DNA of 64,000 bases. Source: Octopus vulgaris. Lineage: Eukaryota. Position 1 is the first letter of the stretch. Each line of letters begins with the position of its first letter. The position numbers and the translations under genes are program-made. Below are positions 7,784 through 50,249 of this stretch, piece after piece. The stretch is from positions 138,632,001 through 138,696,000 of the forward strand of contig OX597816.1 of assembly GCA_951406725.2 (NCBI GenBank), read 5' to 3'. The notes below the pieces were generated by a model. The model had not been told where the DNA came from. It was given only the letters and a program-made list of their open reading frames with translations, and searched no databases.

Positions 7784-8280
7784 TTAGTTAGTTAGTTAGT
7801 TAGTTAATTTGGCTCAAAAGCAAATAGCAAGGCCATGTAGGGGGACATGGAGTTAAGTACAGGGTGGTGTTCATGTAAAGAGTTCAGGCCACTTGAGGTC
7901 AAGGGAGGCTTTGAACAAAGCGGTCGTCGGCATCTTCACCATCTCGTCTGGCAGCTTGTTCCACGGATCCGCAACCCGGACGGAGAAAGCTCCTCTCCTT
8001 CGATTGAGATGAAATCGTCGCAGGTAGAGCTTTTCGGAATAACCCCGCAGCCGACGCTCTGGAGCAGGAGTGAAGAACAGCTCTTTCGAGAGGTTACACT
8101 TTCCGCTTATGATGTTGTGGGCGAGAATGAGATCACCACGGCGCCGGCGTTTTTCAAGAGAATAAAGGTCGAGCGTCCTCAGCCTTTCTTCGTAGGACAA
8201 ATTTTTGAGACCATGAACCATGCGGGTAGCCAGCTTCTGGACTCTTTCGAGATGCTGTATGTCTTTGAGGAGATAAGGAG
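7784..8280 (-). mobile_element. CR1-type LINE 3' fragment
   Basis: ORF 7871-8221: LSYEERLRTLDLYSLEKRRRRGDLI...FSVRVADPWNKLP...FKASLD, followed by a (CTAA)n tail. Confidence 0.9.
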
Positions 8281-8748
8281 AACTCGTATTTTTGTATCAT
8301 TAGGCGTCTTCGATATAGCATGTAGACACCATTCATTTACTGTTGAACATTTAGACCAGATTTTTACGATTCTAGTTCAGAAAATACATTTCAGCCCTCC
8401 AGCCTTTTGGATGAGAAACTGCACTCTGATACATATGTATCAGAGTGCAGTTATGAGAAGGATATCAATTCATTCTCTGTCACTTTCCAAATATAATAGG
8501 ATAAATATTTTTAAATAATTTATTTCTCAATCGAATGGAGTAGTTATGTAGTGCATGCCTGCTTTTGAATGAAATTCTGTTTGTAGCTAAGTATTTTGGT
8601 ACGTTGTTGTTAGTTTAGCTCGGTACACTAGTACTTATCGATCTCACATTGACTTACAGAAAGAAACCCAGCACTCGAAGTAATTTTTAGAGGCTCTGAA
8701 ACAAGTGGTAATAAGTGGGGCATTTATTACATATAGACACATACGCAA

Positions 8749-14775: not shown

Positions 14776-14945
14776 AAATATACATAATTATAATTAGGGT
14801 CCAGCTAACTGCTTCACCACATACCGAAATTAGAAATAGGAGTTAAAAATTCCCTTTCTGCTACTATAAGAATCTCCATGACGGTAAACATACTTTTTTA
14901 CGAAGGCAAAGAGAAAAACAATGAATCAACACGACCAGGATTAAT

Positions 14946-15004
14946 TATATACGCGTTTCGAGATTAAAGTAATTCAAATTTTACAAACTTCTCTCTTCGG
15001 TATG
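14946..15004 (-). ncRNA. Type-I hammerhead-like motif (U4->C) within a pLTR-type element 14785-15004
   Basis: Minus strand reads AUA-CCGAAGA-GAGA...UCUC-GAAAC-GC-GU-A-UAU, with palindromic stem III ACGCGU. Confidence 0.6.
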
Positions 15005-15017
15005 ATATATATATATA

Positions 15018-16571: not shown

Positions 16572-16710
16572 GACGGGCTTCTTTCAGTTCCCGTATGCCA
16601 AATCCACTCACAAGGCTTTGGTCGGCCCGAGGCTATAGTAGAAGACACTTGCCCAAGGTGCCACGCAGTGGGACTGAACCCGGAACCACGTGGTTCGCAA
16701 GCAAGCTCAC
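16380..16710 (-). mobile_element. SINE family A
   Basis: Reverse-complement match to the family. Confidence 0.88.
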
Positions 16711-16783
16711 TATTATTATTACACACGTGTCGAAACGAGGAAGCAAGCCAACAGAAATTTGTAAACATTTAGTTATCCCCGTA

Positions 16784-16832
16784 TCGGCTCGATTTCTGGA
16801 TTAATCCAAAACAATTTTTCCTTCATCAGCGA
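16784..16832 (-). ncRNA. Degenerate type-I hammerhead motif
   Basis: Minus strand reads UCG-CUGAUGA-AGGA...UCCA-GAAAUCGA-G-C-CGA. The U16.1 position reads G. Confidence 0.5.
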
Positions 16833-16991
16833 GGAATACTGAAAATGAAAATAAAAGGAATACTTACACATAGCGACGGAAAAGCAGACGCAATGACACG
16901 TATACACATAAGTACCCCAAATATATCCAAATAGAAATTCTGTAGCAAGCCTCGACATGCGGGCACCCAGTCAGGAATACCACGAATGAGG

Positions 16992-26335: not shown

Positions 26336-28150
26336 TTATTATCATCATCATCATTGCCTTTGCACAGCTTCTAACGATGGGGGTGTACTACGGTGTCAGC
26401 TGTTCACTACCAGTGAACTATGGTAACACGTCTTATTTTTCGAGCACCTTCCGGAGTATTCGAGCGGTTCTAAGCAGTGTTGTTTTCTGCAAGTGCTCCA
26501 CCCTTGTTGCAGCCCCTATTTGTTCCACGGACTTCTCGAGATTTTTACTCACTGTTCCCAGGGTTCCGACAATTATTGATACTACTGCTACCTTTTTGAT
26601 CGACCACAACTGCTTAACTTCCCAAGCTAATCTGTCATATCTCTCACTTTTCTTTCTTCTTTATCGCATACCTTGTTGTCAGCTGGGCATGCTAAACTGT
26701 GATCCAGTATATTTTGTTTTCTTTCTCAGTTAAGACTATGTATAGTTTGTTTTCTTTCTCAGTTAAGACTATGTCTATCTTCCTAATCTGTATCTCATGC
26801 TCGCACTGAATCATGAAATCCTATAGGATCTTCGCATTTCTATTTTCGACGATACCTTCAGGTTTGTGGTCGTACCAATTTTTTTCTCTGTCAAATCCAT
26901 ACTTGTTGCAAAGTTCAATGGCCAAGCCTGCCTATATAGTCGTGGCGTCTCTTATATTCCTTCTGGGCTTGTGACGTACATTGGCTGGTAATATGCCATA
27001 CGGTTTCACCGTTTTGTCCACAGATTCTGCACTTATCACTTTCTGCTGTGTTGTCTATTCTGTACTTTATGTAGTTTGTTCTTAGCGCTTGCTCTTGGGC
27101 AGCATAGATTAGAGTCTCCGTTTCCGGTTTAAATCACTTTTAGTCATCCACAGCCATTTTTTTCTCTGTCTGTCTTATCTTCAACATCCCTATGAAATTG
27201 TCCACGCATTCTTTACTCACCTATTTTCAGTTTCATTCATTTACACTTTCTTGTATAGTGCTTTAACTTTGCAATCTTTCATCCTATACAAGCCTGACAT
27301 TCTTCTAATAATAGCGGTTCTGTAGCATTTTTTACATACCATGCTATGTTGTTTTCTTCTGCTCTAATGCTGTGTTCGCATCCAGTAAGTCCTCTTCCCC
27401 CTCTTTTTCCTGGTACATACAGTCTGTCTGTGACACTTTTTGGGTCGAGTGACCCATATCTAGTTAGCAACTTCCTTGTCTTTCTCTCTAAGCTGCTTAG
27501 TTCGTCTACTGTCCATGCAATTACCCCTGCTCCATGTCTAAGGAGTGAAACCACCCAGGTGTTGATAGCTTCTATCTTATTCCGTCCGTTTAATTTCGAC
27601 TTAAGTATCAGTCTCAGTCTGCGCAAGTACTCTACCTTAATTTTTTCTGTCATTTCTTTCTCCATCAATTTATCCATTTCCCAAATCCCCAAGTACTTAT
27701 AGCCCGTCTCTTCTATCTGCTTCATACCCTCCCCTGACGGTATCGTAAGCCCGTCCATACATTTGATTTTGCTTCTCTTCAAGACTAACACGCTACGCTT
27801 TCTCAGTCCGAACTCCATTCTGATATCAGCACCGAAGGTAAACACCATATCAATGAGGGTACTGACTTGGGCTTCATCTTTACCATAAAGTTTGAGGTCA
27901 TCCATGAATAACAAATGGTTGACTTTTTGCTAGCGGCTTTTGAATACATACCCTGCTTTTGCTTTCCTCAGAATTAGTGTTAGTGGTATCAAGCACAGTA
28001 CAAAGATCGGTGGGGACAGGCAGTTCCCTTGGAAGATGCTCCTCCTAATTTCTACTGTCTCAAAACTTCTTCCATATGCTGTCAAGTCCGTCCTCCAATT
28101 TGCCATACTTTTTCCCAAGCAATCGTTCAACATTCGATGCAATACCAAAT
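26336..28150 (-). mobile_element. R4/Dong-clade non-LTR retrotransposon, 5'-truncated and degenerate (RT plus C-terminal CCHC/REL region)
   Basis: IRRSIFQGNCLSP, HLLFMDDLKLYGK, MEFGLRK, YKYLG, KLNGRNKIEAINT, DRLYVPGKRGGRGL, CRICGQNGETVWHI, RRHD, LQKTTLLRTARILRKVL. Ends in an (ATG/ATA)n tail. Confidence 0.88.
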
Positions 28151-30096: not shown

Positions 30097-30378
30097 AGGT
30101 GCAATGGCCTAGTGGTTAGGGCAGCGGACTCGCGGTCGCAGGATCGCGGTTTCGATTCCCAGACCGGGCGTTGTGAGTGTTTATTGAGCGAAAACACCTA
30201 AAAGCTCCACGAGGCTCCGGCAGGGGGTGGTGATCCCTGCTGTACTCTTTCACCACTCTTTCTCCCACTCTTTCTTCTGTTGACCAGCGGGGTGGCGTCA
30301 TTCGAAGGCTAAAACAATGCGAACGCATTGCGACCAGCGATGTGTAACAACATCTGATGGTCTGGTCGGTCACGTGAT
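30095..30378 (+). mobile_element. SINE family C (tRNA-Arg-like head, resembles octopus OR-type SINEs)
   Basis: TGGCCTAGTGG A box, GGTTTCGATTCCC B box, ends in TCACGTGA. Copies at 39561 and 49355. Confidence 0.9.
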
Positions 30379-30989: not shown

Positions 30990-30992
<3 letters not shown>

Positions 30993-31582
30993 CTCAAAGA
31001 AATTCCAACTCTGTCTGTTTTTATGTTTTATTTATATTCTTATAATATTAATATAGGATATAGAATATAGAATATATAGTAAGAAAGAAATTAAATGAAG
31101 TATTGATTGTCTTATTAAACAAATGAAATATTGAAACTTAAATATTAAATGTCTATTCTCATTGAACTAGTATACTTTCTTGCATTTAAGCATTCATCAG
31201 GTTCAGATTGTGACGGATTCCTCCAAATTTACTTTATAAGTGATGTAGGACAACAAACCCGACGGAAGTGTCAAAATTTCAGATGATGGGTCGTGTTAGA
31301 CACAGCGCCGACTGCTGCAAAGGAGAGTATATCCACTGACCGCAGTTCGGTGCGTTCAAAACCCACATAATCCCCACCTTCAATTTTCCATAATATGTTA
31401 CCGCCTGAAATACTTCAAACGGACGCATAGCATGTTGCTTAGTCGAATTAGCCCAGCATTGACTCCAAAAAAGTTTTGTTGTCAATGCTGCAATTTCCTA
31501 TGTTACCTGTTTCAACATAACTGTAATATATTATATACAAACTTGCCAGTGATACCCGAGCAATGCCGGGTATCACTGCTAG
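30990..31582 (+). mobile_element. Non-autonomous Helitron-like element
   Basis: 3' ACCCGAGCAATGCCGGGT hairpin followed by CTAG|T. Same type of end as 53590-53620. Confidence 0.6.
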
Positions 31583-39213: not shown

Positions 39214-39260
<47 letters not shown>

Positions 39261-39428
39261 GGAGTAAACACATAAATGTGAAACAAGGTGGAAAAAAGAG
39301 TACTCAAATACCAGTGGTAGAGTAATATGCTTTATTTTAAGCAGCAGAAAATTCAACAAAATCTGTTACTCTGAGTTTCTCGTTGCCGTTCATCATGAAT
39401 TAATATATATGTTCCATTCTAGCAAAAA

Positions 39429-39466
39429 CTGTCTGATGAACGGCAACGAGAAACTCAGAGTAACAG
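39429..39466 (+). ncRNA. Minimal type-I hammerhead ribozyme motif
   Basis: CUGU-CUGAUGA-ACG-GCAA-CGA-GAA-ACUC-A-GAGU-A-ACAG. Predicted cleavage after 39462. Confidence 0.7.
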
Positions 39467-39498
39467 ATTTTGTTGATTTTTCTGCTGCTTAAAATAAA

Positions 39499-39533
<35 letters not shown>

Positions 39534-39560
39534 TATATATGATAAAATTAATATATATGT

Positions 39561-39867
39561 GGAGGCGCAATGGCCCAGTGGTTAGAGCAGCGGACTCACG
39601 GTCGTAGGATCGCGGTTTCGATTCCCAGACCAGGCGTTGTGAGTGTTTATTGAGCGAAAACACCGAAAGCTCCACGAGCCTCCGGCAGCGGATGGTGGCG
39701 ATCCCTGCTGTACTCTTTCGCTACAACTTACTCTCACTCTTTCTTCTGTTGGCCTGCTCGCTTAGCCAGCGGGGTGGCGTCATTTGAAGGCTAAAACAAT
39801 GCGAAGCGCATTGTGACCAGTGACGTGTAGCAACATCTGATAGCCTGGTCAATCACGGTGATCACGG

Positions 39868-39869
<2 letters not shown>
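39561..39869 (+). mobile_element. SINE family C
   Basis: Full-length match to the 30095 and 49355 copies. Confidence 0.9.
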
Positions 39870-39938
<69 letters not shown>

Positions 39939-39945
<7 letters not shown>

Positions 39946-40575
39946 AAAGGGCTTAGTAAAATAAATTACTTTGCCACATACTGAACTCATTAGAAATAGT
40001 AGCTAAAAAAACTTTTTTAAAACTATTTCTAATACTTAAAGAAAATCTCTCTCATATAGTGTTTGCTCAATTCAACTCACGAAAGTATGGGGGTAAAGAC
40101 ATTAAAAAATCAAATGCAAAGGTTATTTGAGAACGTACGTTTCAAGATTAGTCAAACTCGACATTTCTATCATCAGCTCAGAACTCCTTGGTTTGGATTT
40201 GAAAACACTGAAAGTGGGATCATACCCTTTCGGCTTCTTATCGCTTCTGAAGATCTGCTCGAAACTAACAGTGCCAGCACACCCAAAATATGCAAGCGAA
40301 GAATTTCTGCTCTCCCCTTTCCACCAGCGTGGGTTAAAATCAGTAAACACTATGCTTTTTCGGTAAATCCGAAACATTTAATAGAGAGAGATGAATTATA
40401 ATTTCAACAATTGAGGGTAAAATTAATTAATTAATTATTAATCAATTTCACCAAGTGTTCAGTATGTAAAGGGACCATTTAAGGCGAATTCAAATTATTA
40501 CATTATATAAAAGGGCTTAGTAAAATAAATTACTTTGCCACATACTGAACTCATTAGAAATAGTAGCTAAAAAAA

Positions 40576-40580
<5 letters not shown>
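39939..40580 (-). mobile_element. Hammerhead-bearing non-coding element with a 78-bp terminal direct repeat, in (TA)n
   Basis: 39939-40016 = 40503-40580 (period 564). Homologous in part to 14785-14870. Confidence 0.78.
40128..40180 (-). ncRNA. Type-I hammerhead ribozyme motif with palindromic stem III
   Basis: Minus strand reads UGAG-CUGAUGA-UAGA..GUCGA-GU-UUGAC..UCUU-GAAAC-GUAC-GU-U-CUCA. Confidence 0.75.
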
Positions 40581-40629
<49 letters not shown>

Positions 40630-41001
40630 CATGCATAGTCTATTCGGTTTGTATTATTCTTATAAAGTCATATTGCTATTCAAGCTCACAAGAAAATCGG
40701 AGTTGAGGCAGGCAAAGTTAACAACACAATTTGACATTAAATGCACAATCGAGTGGTAAAAGGTTCGATCTTACTGCGCGACATTGTTAGAACGGTGAGC
40801 TAGTTGGATCGTAAGTTCGACGAGCAAAATGCTAAGCGGTATTTCTTCAACCTTTTTTTTTTATGCTCGGAGTATAAATAACACCGAACTCAATTTTCAG
40901 GATCGATAAAATTAATTAGCACTCATGTACTAGGTATCGGTATAATCAACTTGTTTCCTCCCCTCAAAACTGCTTGATCGAAAATTTAAAAGGAATTATT
41001 A

Positions 41002-49261: not shown

Positions 49262-49354
<93 letters not shown>

Positions 49355-49357
<3 letters not shown>

Positions 49358-49650
49358 ACGCAATGGCCCAGTGGTTAGGGCAGCGGACTCGCGGTCGTAG
49401 GATCGCGGTTTCGATTCCCAGACCGGGCGTTGTGTGTGTTTATTGAGCGAAAACACCTAAAAGCTCCACGAGGCTCCGGCAGGGGGTGGTGATCCCTGCT
49501 GTACTCTTTCACCACTCTTTCTCTCACTCTTTCTTCTGTTGGCCTGCTCGCTTAGCCAGCGGGGTGGCGTCATTCGAAGGCTAAAACAATGCGAACGCAT
49601 TGTGACCAGCGATGTGTAGCAACATCTGATGGTCTGGTCAGTCACGTGAT

Positions 49651-49658
<8 letters not shown>
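49355..49658 (+). mobile_element. SINE family C, full length
   Basis: Matches the 30095 and 39561 copies. Confidence 0.92.
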
Positions 49659-49685: not shown

Positions 49686-50247
49686 ACTAATGTAGGATAA
49701 AATCTTTTTCGGGAAAAAAATTTTATCAATGGCCAGCATATCAAAAAATACCTTTAAAAGTTAAATTTATACATAATTTACAAGATAAGGGCAAAAGAAA
49801 AATTCTAATGCCAAATATGCCGAAAAAAGACAAAAATTGTCAATAACCATTATAATTTATGCGTCTCGAAGCAATATTTTGGATATATTTGGGGTACTTA
49901 GGTCTGCTCAGGACTTAGTGCTTGCTTTTTCCATGGGTATGAGTAAGTACTTCACTTATATCTCACGTATTTATCGCTGAAGAGGGGCCAATCTTATGAA
50001 TTAACCCCGATTTTGGACCAATACGGTAATAACGGATTTTTTAGAAATTTCTATCGGTTTGTTTCGAGACGCATAAATTATAATGTTTATTCATAATGTT
50101 TGTCTTTTTTTCGGCATATTTGGCATTAGAATTTTTCTTTTGCCCCTATCTTGTAAATTATTTATAAATTTAACTTTTAAAGGTATTTTTTGATATGTTG
50201 GCCATTGATAAAATTTTTTTCCCGAAAAAGATTTTATCCTACATTAG

Positions 50248-50249
<2 letters not shown>
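49685..50249. mobile_element. Element with ~186-bp inverted arms in (TA)n, with a half hammerhead in the spacer
   Basis: 49685-49870 is the reverse complement of 50063-50249. The spacer is homologous to 16790-16930(-). Confidence 0.85.

Follow-up and report, generated by a model that had tools for sequence, protein, structure and literature searches.

A probable Penelope-derived non-LTR retrozyme inserted in an (AT)n tract of Octopus vulgaris

A 643-bp insert (39938-40580) comprising 1.14 units of a 564-bp repeat, set between two (AT)n tracts, was identified in a 64,000-nt window of the Octopus vulgaris genome (contig OX597816.1, positions 138,632,001 to 138,696,000; coordinates below are those of the window). 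The insert is probably a copy of a high-copy, non-coding, Penelope-derived non-LTR retrozyme, the RNA of which would be cut, circularised and copied into (AT)n DNA by the reverse transcriptase (RT) and endonuclease of a Penelope-like element (PLE) acting in trans. On sequence grounds it is best filed as a non-LTR retrozyme, with putative tandem source loci, RNA cleavage and RNA circle.

The two copies of the terminal redundancy, R, are identical over 79 bp and offset by 564 bp (BLAST E 2e-36; Table 1). The initial annotation had given 78 bp, and the extra base could belong to (AT)n; its 564-bp unit with one internal hammerhead is upheld by the offset of R and by a motif on the minus strand. 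The left flank contains 35 AT repeats (39870-39939) and the right flank 19, and no TSD can be defined since the insert sits inside (AT)n. As expected of a non-LTR retrozyme, the unit is short, low in GC and non-coding, and R is devoid of TG..CA ends. No ORF longer than 113 codons was found in the unit on either strand, the circularised unit included; a 110-aa plus-strand frame gave no Pfam match at the cut-off, and an ORF for RT and GIY-YIG between pLTRs is not present in the insert. A search of the unit for a B box was negative and the minus strand carries two T-runs, which would argue against internal Pol III transcription.

Table 1. Features of the 564-bp repeat, its insertion site and its relative in the window
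Feature	Position	Strand	Remarks
Diverged 5'-truncated relative of 39938-40176	14787-15000	-	Same AT-joined end; degenerate hammerhead core
(AT)n target tract, left	39870-39937	.	Comes after tRNA-type SINE-like repeat 39556-39866
R, left copy	39938-40016	-	3' end of RNA-sense strand; reverse transcription inferred to begin at 39938
Hairpin over R/unique junction	39989-40033	-	z -4.1; caps one end of predicted circle
One 564-nt unit	40017-40580	-	33% GC
Predicted long imperfect rod	40045-40392	-	Apex near 40210; z -3.3 (minus), -4.1 (plus)
Type I hammerhead motif	40128-40180	-	Core 40176-40140; own structural descriptor
Hammerhead-like mirror motif	40247-40273	+	GUG, no stem I; predicted non-functional
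Arm closed by 11-bp helix 40457-40467/40540-40550	40457-40550	-	Unique sequence paired with R
R, right copy	40502-40580	-	5' end of insert
(AT)n target tract, right	40581-40618	.	

The minus-strand motif, annotated initially as a hammerhead with an intact core and an 8-nt palindromic stem III, passes our structural descriptor for type I hammerheads. Its CUGAUGA box lies at 40176-40170 and its GAAA at 40143-40140, with the palindromic stem III at 40140-40133; the triplet is GUU, predicting a cut at 40132|40131, 194 nt from the (AT)n join. Stem I has 4 bp (40180-40177 with 40128-40131) and is extendable beyond an internal loop, and stem II has a U.U mismatch at its base plus an internal loop. 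A hammerhead with GUU and a U.U base of stem II is likely to be a weak cutter. The descriptor matched four type I motifs in the window, compared with a mean of 0.1 (maximum 1) in 30 block-shuffled windows. The unit thus contains the type I hammerhead of a non-LTR retrozyme by our own descriptor, with Rfam negative: no hammerhead was matched at the gathering score across the window, nor at E<=10 in 39800-40700 and 40105-40200. The isolated 86-nt hammerhead stretch folded no better than its shuffles (z 0.33), and none of 38 variable sites fell in the 12 core positions, a conservation that is not significant (P 0.43).

Two further minus-strand type I hammerheads passed the descriptor. That at 31200-31168 has a palindromic stem III and lies 177 nt from an (AT)n join, and that at 16829-16782 has a stem II similar in build to that of the 564-mer. 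Another hammerhead of the window lies 37 nt from such a join. Rfam gave no hammerhead match at 16760-16850. A MAFFT alignment of five hammerheads placed the cores out of register and was left out of the results.

Of the 24 public runs listed, none of them recorded as RNA, 20 contain the stretch; they come from 9 studies and carry 4 organism labels. Four of them (X1, X3, X9 and X12) were compared with one unit, 40017-40580. Contigs aligned to the unit numbered 11,090 in X1 and 3,236 in X3, covering 30 of 30 bins mostly at 90-100% identity, and the share continuing into unlike sequence was 0 in both. Joints from 40572-40580 to 40017-40025 occurred in many sequence variants at depths of 180-2,183, and the junction 40501|40502 was bridged by contigs too (for example, X1 record 6 and X12 record 14), so that the R-to-U and U-to-R junctions are both family-wide. 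The segment 40491-40538 occurs twice, at a period of roughly 560, in a diverged 630-nt contig recovered from both X1 (depth 14.6) and X3 (depth 21.7). Contig depth is not copy number, de Bruijn contigs do not separate R-U-R from longer tandems, and X9 and X12 were only guessed to be RNA, for which reason their depth was kept out of the expression evidence. The unit therefore belongs to a repeated family, as non-LTR retrozymes do; with respect to tandem arrangement, the present copy has 1.14 units and one ribozyme, and both junctions are family-wide in short contigs that are blind to multimers. Among the sequences seen there was no tandem copy carrying two hammerheads. Uniqueness of the redundancy to this locus, which the initial annotation had named as the observation that would overturn its reading, is contradicted by this high-copy family in which both junctions recur. 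A local duplication or assembly artefact, as might be suspected from identical R copies in microsatellite-rich sequence, has next to no probability given that both junctions are found in many variants, at high depth and in independent runs, and that the diverged 630-nt contig likewise extends beyond one unit. X12 also contained contigs with only the AT-rich part 40397-40510, some joined to (AT)n, at a depth of about 600-1,200 compared with 30-310 elsewhere; this part is perhaps a fragment within an abundant transcript.

Folded as a circle, the minus-strand unit had an MFE of -149.2, compared with -109.0 +/- 5.4 in 30 shuffles (z -7.4); z was -5.7 for the same strand as a line and -5.9 for the circular plus strand, which folds nearly as well. 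By prediction alone, the unit thus has the stable self-paired monomer fold of a non-LTR retrozyme. The predicted circle contains the rod, junction hairpin and arm listed in Table 1 and an AT hairpin. The right end of the insert, 40580, lies in the loop of the junction hairpin, and the AU-rich loop of the arm (40486-40513; mean unpaired probability 0.73) contains the unit position of the putative priming site, 40502. In the modelled circle the hammerhead is predicted to be sequestered by the rod, which spans the cut site: the pairs of the active hammerhead (stems I and II) have P <= 0.02, and imposing them carries a penalty of 8.6 kcal/mol. For the linear cut-to-cut monomer the folding energy is -153.2. 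With the predicted cut site in mid-rod and both cut ends opposite one continuous strand (40277-40287), a cut-to-cut monomer would keep its ends together.

Variation within the family supports this fold only in part. Variation at both partners was seen in 4 of 175 pairs, compared with 0.78 expected (P 0.004), and in two of the four it restores pairing. The frequencies of matched changes were 0.25/0.29 (X1) and 0.23/0.30 (X3) at 40158/40262, and 0.39/0.43 (X1) and 0.47/0.40 (X3) at 40467/40540. Those at 40158/40262 disagree in X9 (0.06 versus 0.62); phase was inferred for this pair alone, from one X12 contig that also bears a nearby 1-nt deletion. The changes at 40467/40540 could alternatively stem from correction, at the DNA level, between the arms of a short inverted repeat. 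Among the 19 sites varying at >=15% in X1 and X3, a threshold set after the table had been inspected, two pairs co-vary (0.19 expected, P 0.014), both restoring pairing. Among 40 listed of 88 variant rows, 15 were unpaired, 7 kept the pair and 3 were rescued by the partner, while the other 15 (of 25 at paired sites) disrupt pairing without an evident compensating change; several of the pair-breaking variants are sites at which the present copy differs from most of the family.

The rod also bears on the second hammerhead-like motif noted initially. A plus-strand CUGAAGA..GAAAC with a GUG triplet is indeed present (40247-40265), its start lying 3 nt from the 40244 first given, and it fails the descriptor. 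From the modelled fold, it is better read as the mirror of the predicted blocking arm of the rod than as a ribozyme, given that a strand pairing with a hammerhead must resemble one on the opposite strand. The predicted ensemble gives P 0.000 to an in-register pairing of the two cores, which in the rod are paired with an offset of 3 nt. With GUG, no stem I and a GAAA changed in 29%, 30%, 62% and 36% of depth across the four public runs, the plus motif is predicted not to provide a working ribozyme in the second polarity. The carnation retroviroid-like element is a hammerhead circle with a DNA counterpart, and is in this respect like the predicted 564-nt circle; the carnation RNA has working ribozymes in both polarities, whereas the plus motif of the 564-mer fails.

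A viroid-like origin of the family is very doubtful. In this reading the family would be an animal retroviroid-like element, derived from an ambisense viroid-like circular RNA that lost its plus hammerhead by decay and was captured and amplified by a PLE RT, and each genomic copy would record one turn around the circle. A rod with a blocked ribozyme is typical of viroids and plant retrozymes over most animal ones (PMC7229834), both strands fold well, and CUGAAGA..GAAAC on the opposite strand faces the hammerhead. The defects of the plus motif and the inevitable likeness of a hammerhead-pairing strand to a hammerhead weigh against such descent, as does the absence of a relative among the at least 152 viral and metagenomic loci fetched by motif. 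The exact 22-nt pattern had 0 matches in metagenome contigs. Looser motifs fetched 33 viral and at least 119 metagenomic loci; among these 152, none was like the unit beyond the motif, the best likeness being 19-27 nt with no nhmmer match. The family does have a genomic relative, and this has a PLE-type end, again in disagreement with a viroid-like origin.

This diverged relative, the region of which was picked after a weak BLAST/nhmmer match, is identical to 39938-40176 at 146 of 204 aligned bases, with a score of 96 compared with a maximum of 79 in 200 shuffles and of 75.5 in 1,094 window tiles. It starts at the same AT-rich point as 39938 and has both the junction hairpin and, with another palindrome, the 3' half of the hammerhead, ending at the degenerate core. 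In 14787-15005, the AT tract is immediately preceded by 9 nt that form the reverse complement of 14820-14828; they may represent a fold-back at the 5' junction, or chance. Among 24 listed of 290 loose-end rows, one X12 contig exits the unit at 40573, some 7 nt short of 40580, and X12 was the only run with ends joined to AT at 40397 and 40414. Circular permutation among other copies of the 564-mer, which the initial annotation proposed to check, finds scant backing in these ends. Rather than free permutation, the few ends seen suggest the PLE pattern of a preferred 3' end combined with 5' truncation. The insert in this way combines traits of EN+ PLEs, namely a hammerhead near the 3' end, an AT-rich target and a preferred 3' end (n=2 ends). 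The (AT)n target, the relative with the same 3' end and the two window hammerheads near (AT)n joins make a link to PLEs likely at the level of sequence.

The same ends are relevant to whether the insert could be a TRIM-like miniature LTR element with 79-bp LTRs, which we consider highly improbable. Such an element would account for the R-U-R layout, for a second copy ending so close to 40580 and for a summed R depth of 2.2x (X1) and 1.6x (X3) the median of U, a poor measure; R, however, lacks the TG..CA ends, and its end cuts a hairpin whose second arm is in U; the (AT)n target and the 5'-truncated relative are further points against such an element.

For the retrozyme, the insert exceeds one unit and continues past the ribozyme cut site, which indicates a template that was either a circle or an uncut tandem. 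A cut linear monomer would be unsuitable, as cDNA begun at 39938 would end after 194 nt. The circular or tandem RNA template proposed initially fits this passage over the cut site, but the two forms would leave the same DNA; we lean slightly towards the circle over an uncut multimer. In the proposed mechanism, source loci with two or more units would be transcribed on the minus strand and the RNA cleaved at GUU; the cleaving form would probably be a double hammerhead, made possible by the palindromic stem III. The present copy, with one ribozyme, would be unable to release a monomer itself, making it a daughter insertion rather than a source. The monomer is predicted to fold with both cut ends paired to the strand 40277-40287, ready for ligation, which a host ligase may carry out, and the hammerhead would then be blocked in the circle. 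Nicked (AT)n DNA would anneal and prime in the AU-rich unpaired loop near 40502, and the RT would cross the cut site, finish one turn and stop 79 nt on in the hairpin loop; stalling during strand displacement is our guess at the cause of this stop. The mechanism is the published model for the retrozyme class and is not surprising. An autonomous partner element was not found in this analysis.

A non-autonomous Penelope derivative moving only through linear, uncut tandem transcripts, with no circle, is possible but unlikely. The 79 bp would then be a pLTR-style partial tandem or tail and the rod an old head-to-head pLTR inversion. PLEs are described with partial tandems, 5' inversions, 30-40-bp tails and a (TA)n preference (PMC8557442), Schistosoma has opposite-strand hammerheads 100-700 bp apart (PMC4209133), insertion by PAc in vitro had no need of ribozyme cleavage (PMC11167929), and the window itself contains a young head-to-head hammerhead inversion at 39330-39499. 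On the other hand, the entire 564-mer is structured, with helices over both R junctions and the cut site, as would be expected if the cut-to-cut monomer were the selected molecule, and the rod arms are not recognisable as an inverted duplicate (nhmmer E 4.3), yet partner sites co-vary.

Type I hammerhead repeats of 170-400 nt are expressed as circles in coral, mussel and axolotl, and animal retrozyme RNAs were ligated by RtcB in vitro, with mobilisation by PLEs proposed (PMC7229834). Retrozymes have been tied to pLTRs, with units of 51-972 bp and many monomers; of nine predicted Xenopus retrozyme dimers, eight were uncleaved and one was cleaved (bioRxiv 10.64898/2026.07.22.740005). Non-LTR retrozymes make circRNA and are proposed users of PLE enzymes (PMC7229834; bioRxiv 10.64898/2026.07.22.740005). 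PLE RT is capable of internal initiation and AT-rich DNA is nicked; the main in vitro template of a PLE was uncut RNA, which counts against the circle route (PMC11167929). Palindromic stem III, opposite-strand hammerhead pairs and a circle-to-more-than-unit model have been described (PMC4209133). In Octopus vulgaris, 31 recently active Penelope-like families are listed, in a paper whose main text contains 0 instances of the word 'ribozyme' (PMC13282606). Within the literature searched, comprising article text rather than Repbase/Dfam entries or the PMC7229834 supplement, no retrozyme from a cephalopod is described.

The 564-mer resembles metazoan non-LTR retrozymes in being non-coding, with GC below 45-50% and one type I hammerhead per unit, and in its self-paired predicted circle, high copy and common monomeric copies; axolotl HHR_Amex2 likewise has a U.U mismatch at the stem II base. 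At 564 nt it is larger than the tested animal circles, although inside the family range. Plant retrozymes, viroids and some mussel circles have a blocked ribozyme, whereas that of most animal circles is free (PMC7229834); the hammerhead here is predicted to be blocked, which the available text of that source reports, among metazoan non-LTR retrozymes, for some mussel circles only. The octopus element is, moreover, seen as a 1.14-unit copy in (AT)n, from DNA alone. With the pLTR/tail of EN+ PLEs (Penelope/Poseidon, Neptune) it shares a type I hammerhead with palindromic stem III shortly upstream of the 3' end, as well as the AT-rich/(TA)n target, 5' truncation and partial tandems (PMC4209133, PMC11167929, PMC8557442), but it has no RT/GIY-YIG ORF, its period is only 564 bp and its 79-bp overlap exceeds the usual tail. 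Plant LTR retrozymes and hammerhead viroids are alike in size, near 600 nt, and in a ribozyme blocked by the complementary strand in the predicted circle (PMC7229834), whereas the 564-mer is type I rather than type III, low in GC and without LTR ends or a working opposite-polarity ribozyme.

The movement of animal retrozymes is still a model, in which circles are proven in coral, mussel and axolotl and PLE copying from the circle is a proposal (PMC7229834; bioRxiv 10.64898/2026.07.22.740005). A high-copy dispersed family of slightly more-than-unit copies would make this model testable from genome sequence alone, through the priming site, the passage over the cut site and the distribution of overlap lengths. 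The predicted self-blocked rod would make this element more viroid-like than most animal retrozymes.

Microsatellites, SINE-like repeats and LINE fragments are dense in the animal DNA of the window. The head-to-head inverted repeat at 39330-39499 lies between (AT)n tracts, carries a type I hammerhead at 39433-39462 (plus strand) and is unrelated in sequence to the 564-mer; it resembles a young PLE 3' end bearing a 5' inversion, and its left arm is extended by about 70 bp. A further inverted repeat at 49686-50248, with 190-bp arms of 93% identity, adjoins (AT)n and encloses a CTGAAGA at 49977, and is either a MITE or a PLE inversion. Relatedness to the unit was considered for 30990-31490, 16708-16990, 39260-39500 and this inverted repeat, and rejected, as no alignment exceeded shuffles. 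A tRNA-type SINE-like family is present at 39556-39866, 49348-49654 and 30101-30376 (90-93% identical), and the tract behind the copy at 39556 is the target of the 564-bp element. LINE-type RT fragments were found on the minus strand at 7871-8296 and 27279-27929, the latter with a weak RVT_1 match and relatives of up to 69% identity; when a nearby LINE RT fragment served as query, animal relatives were returned, the named ones from octocoral, shrimp and lizard.
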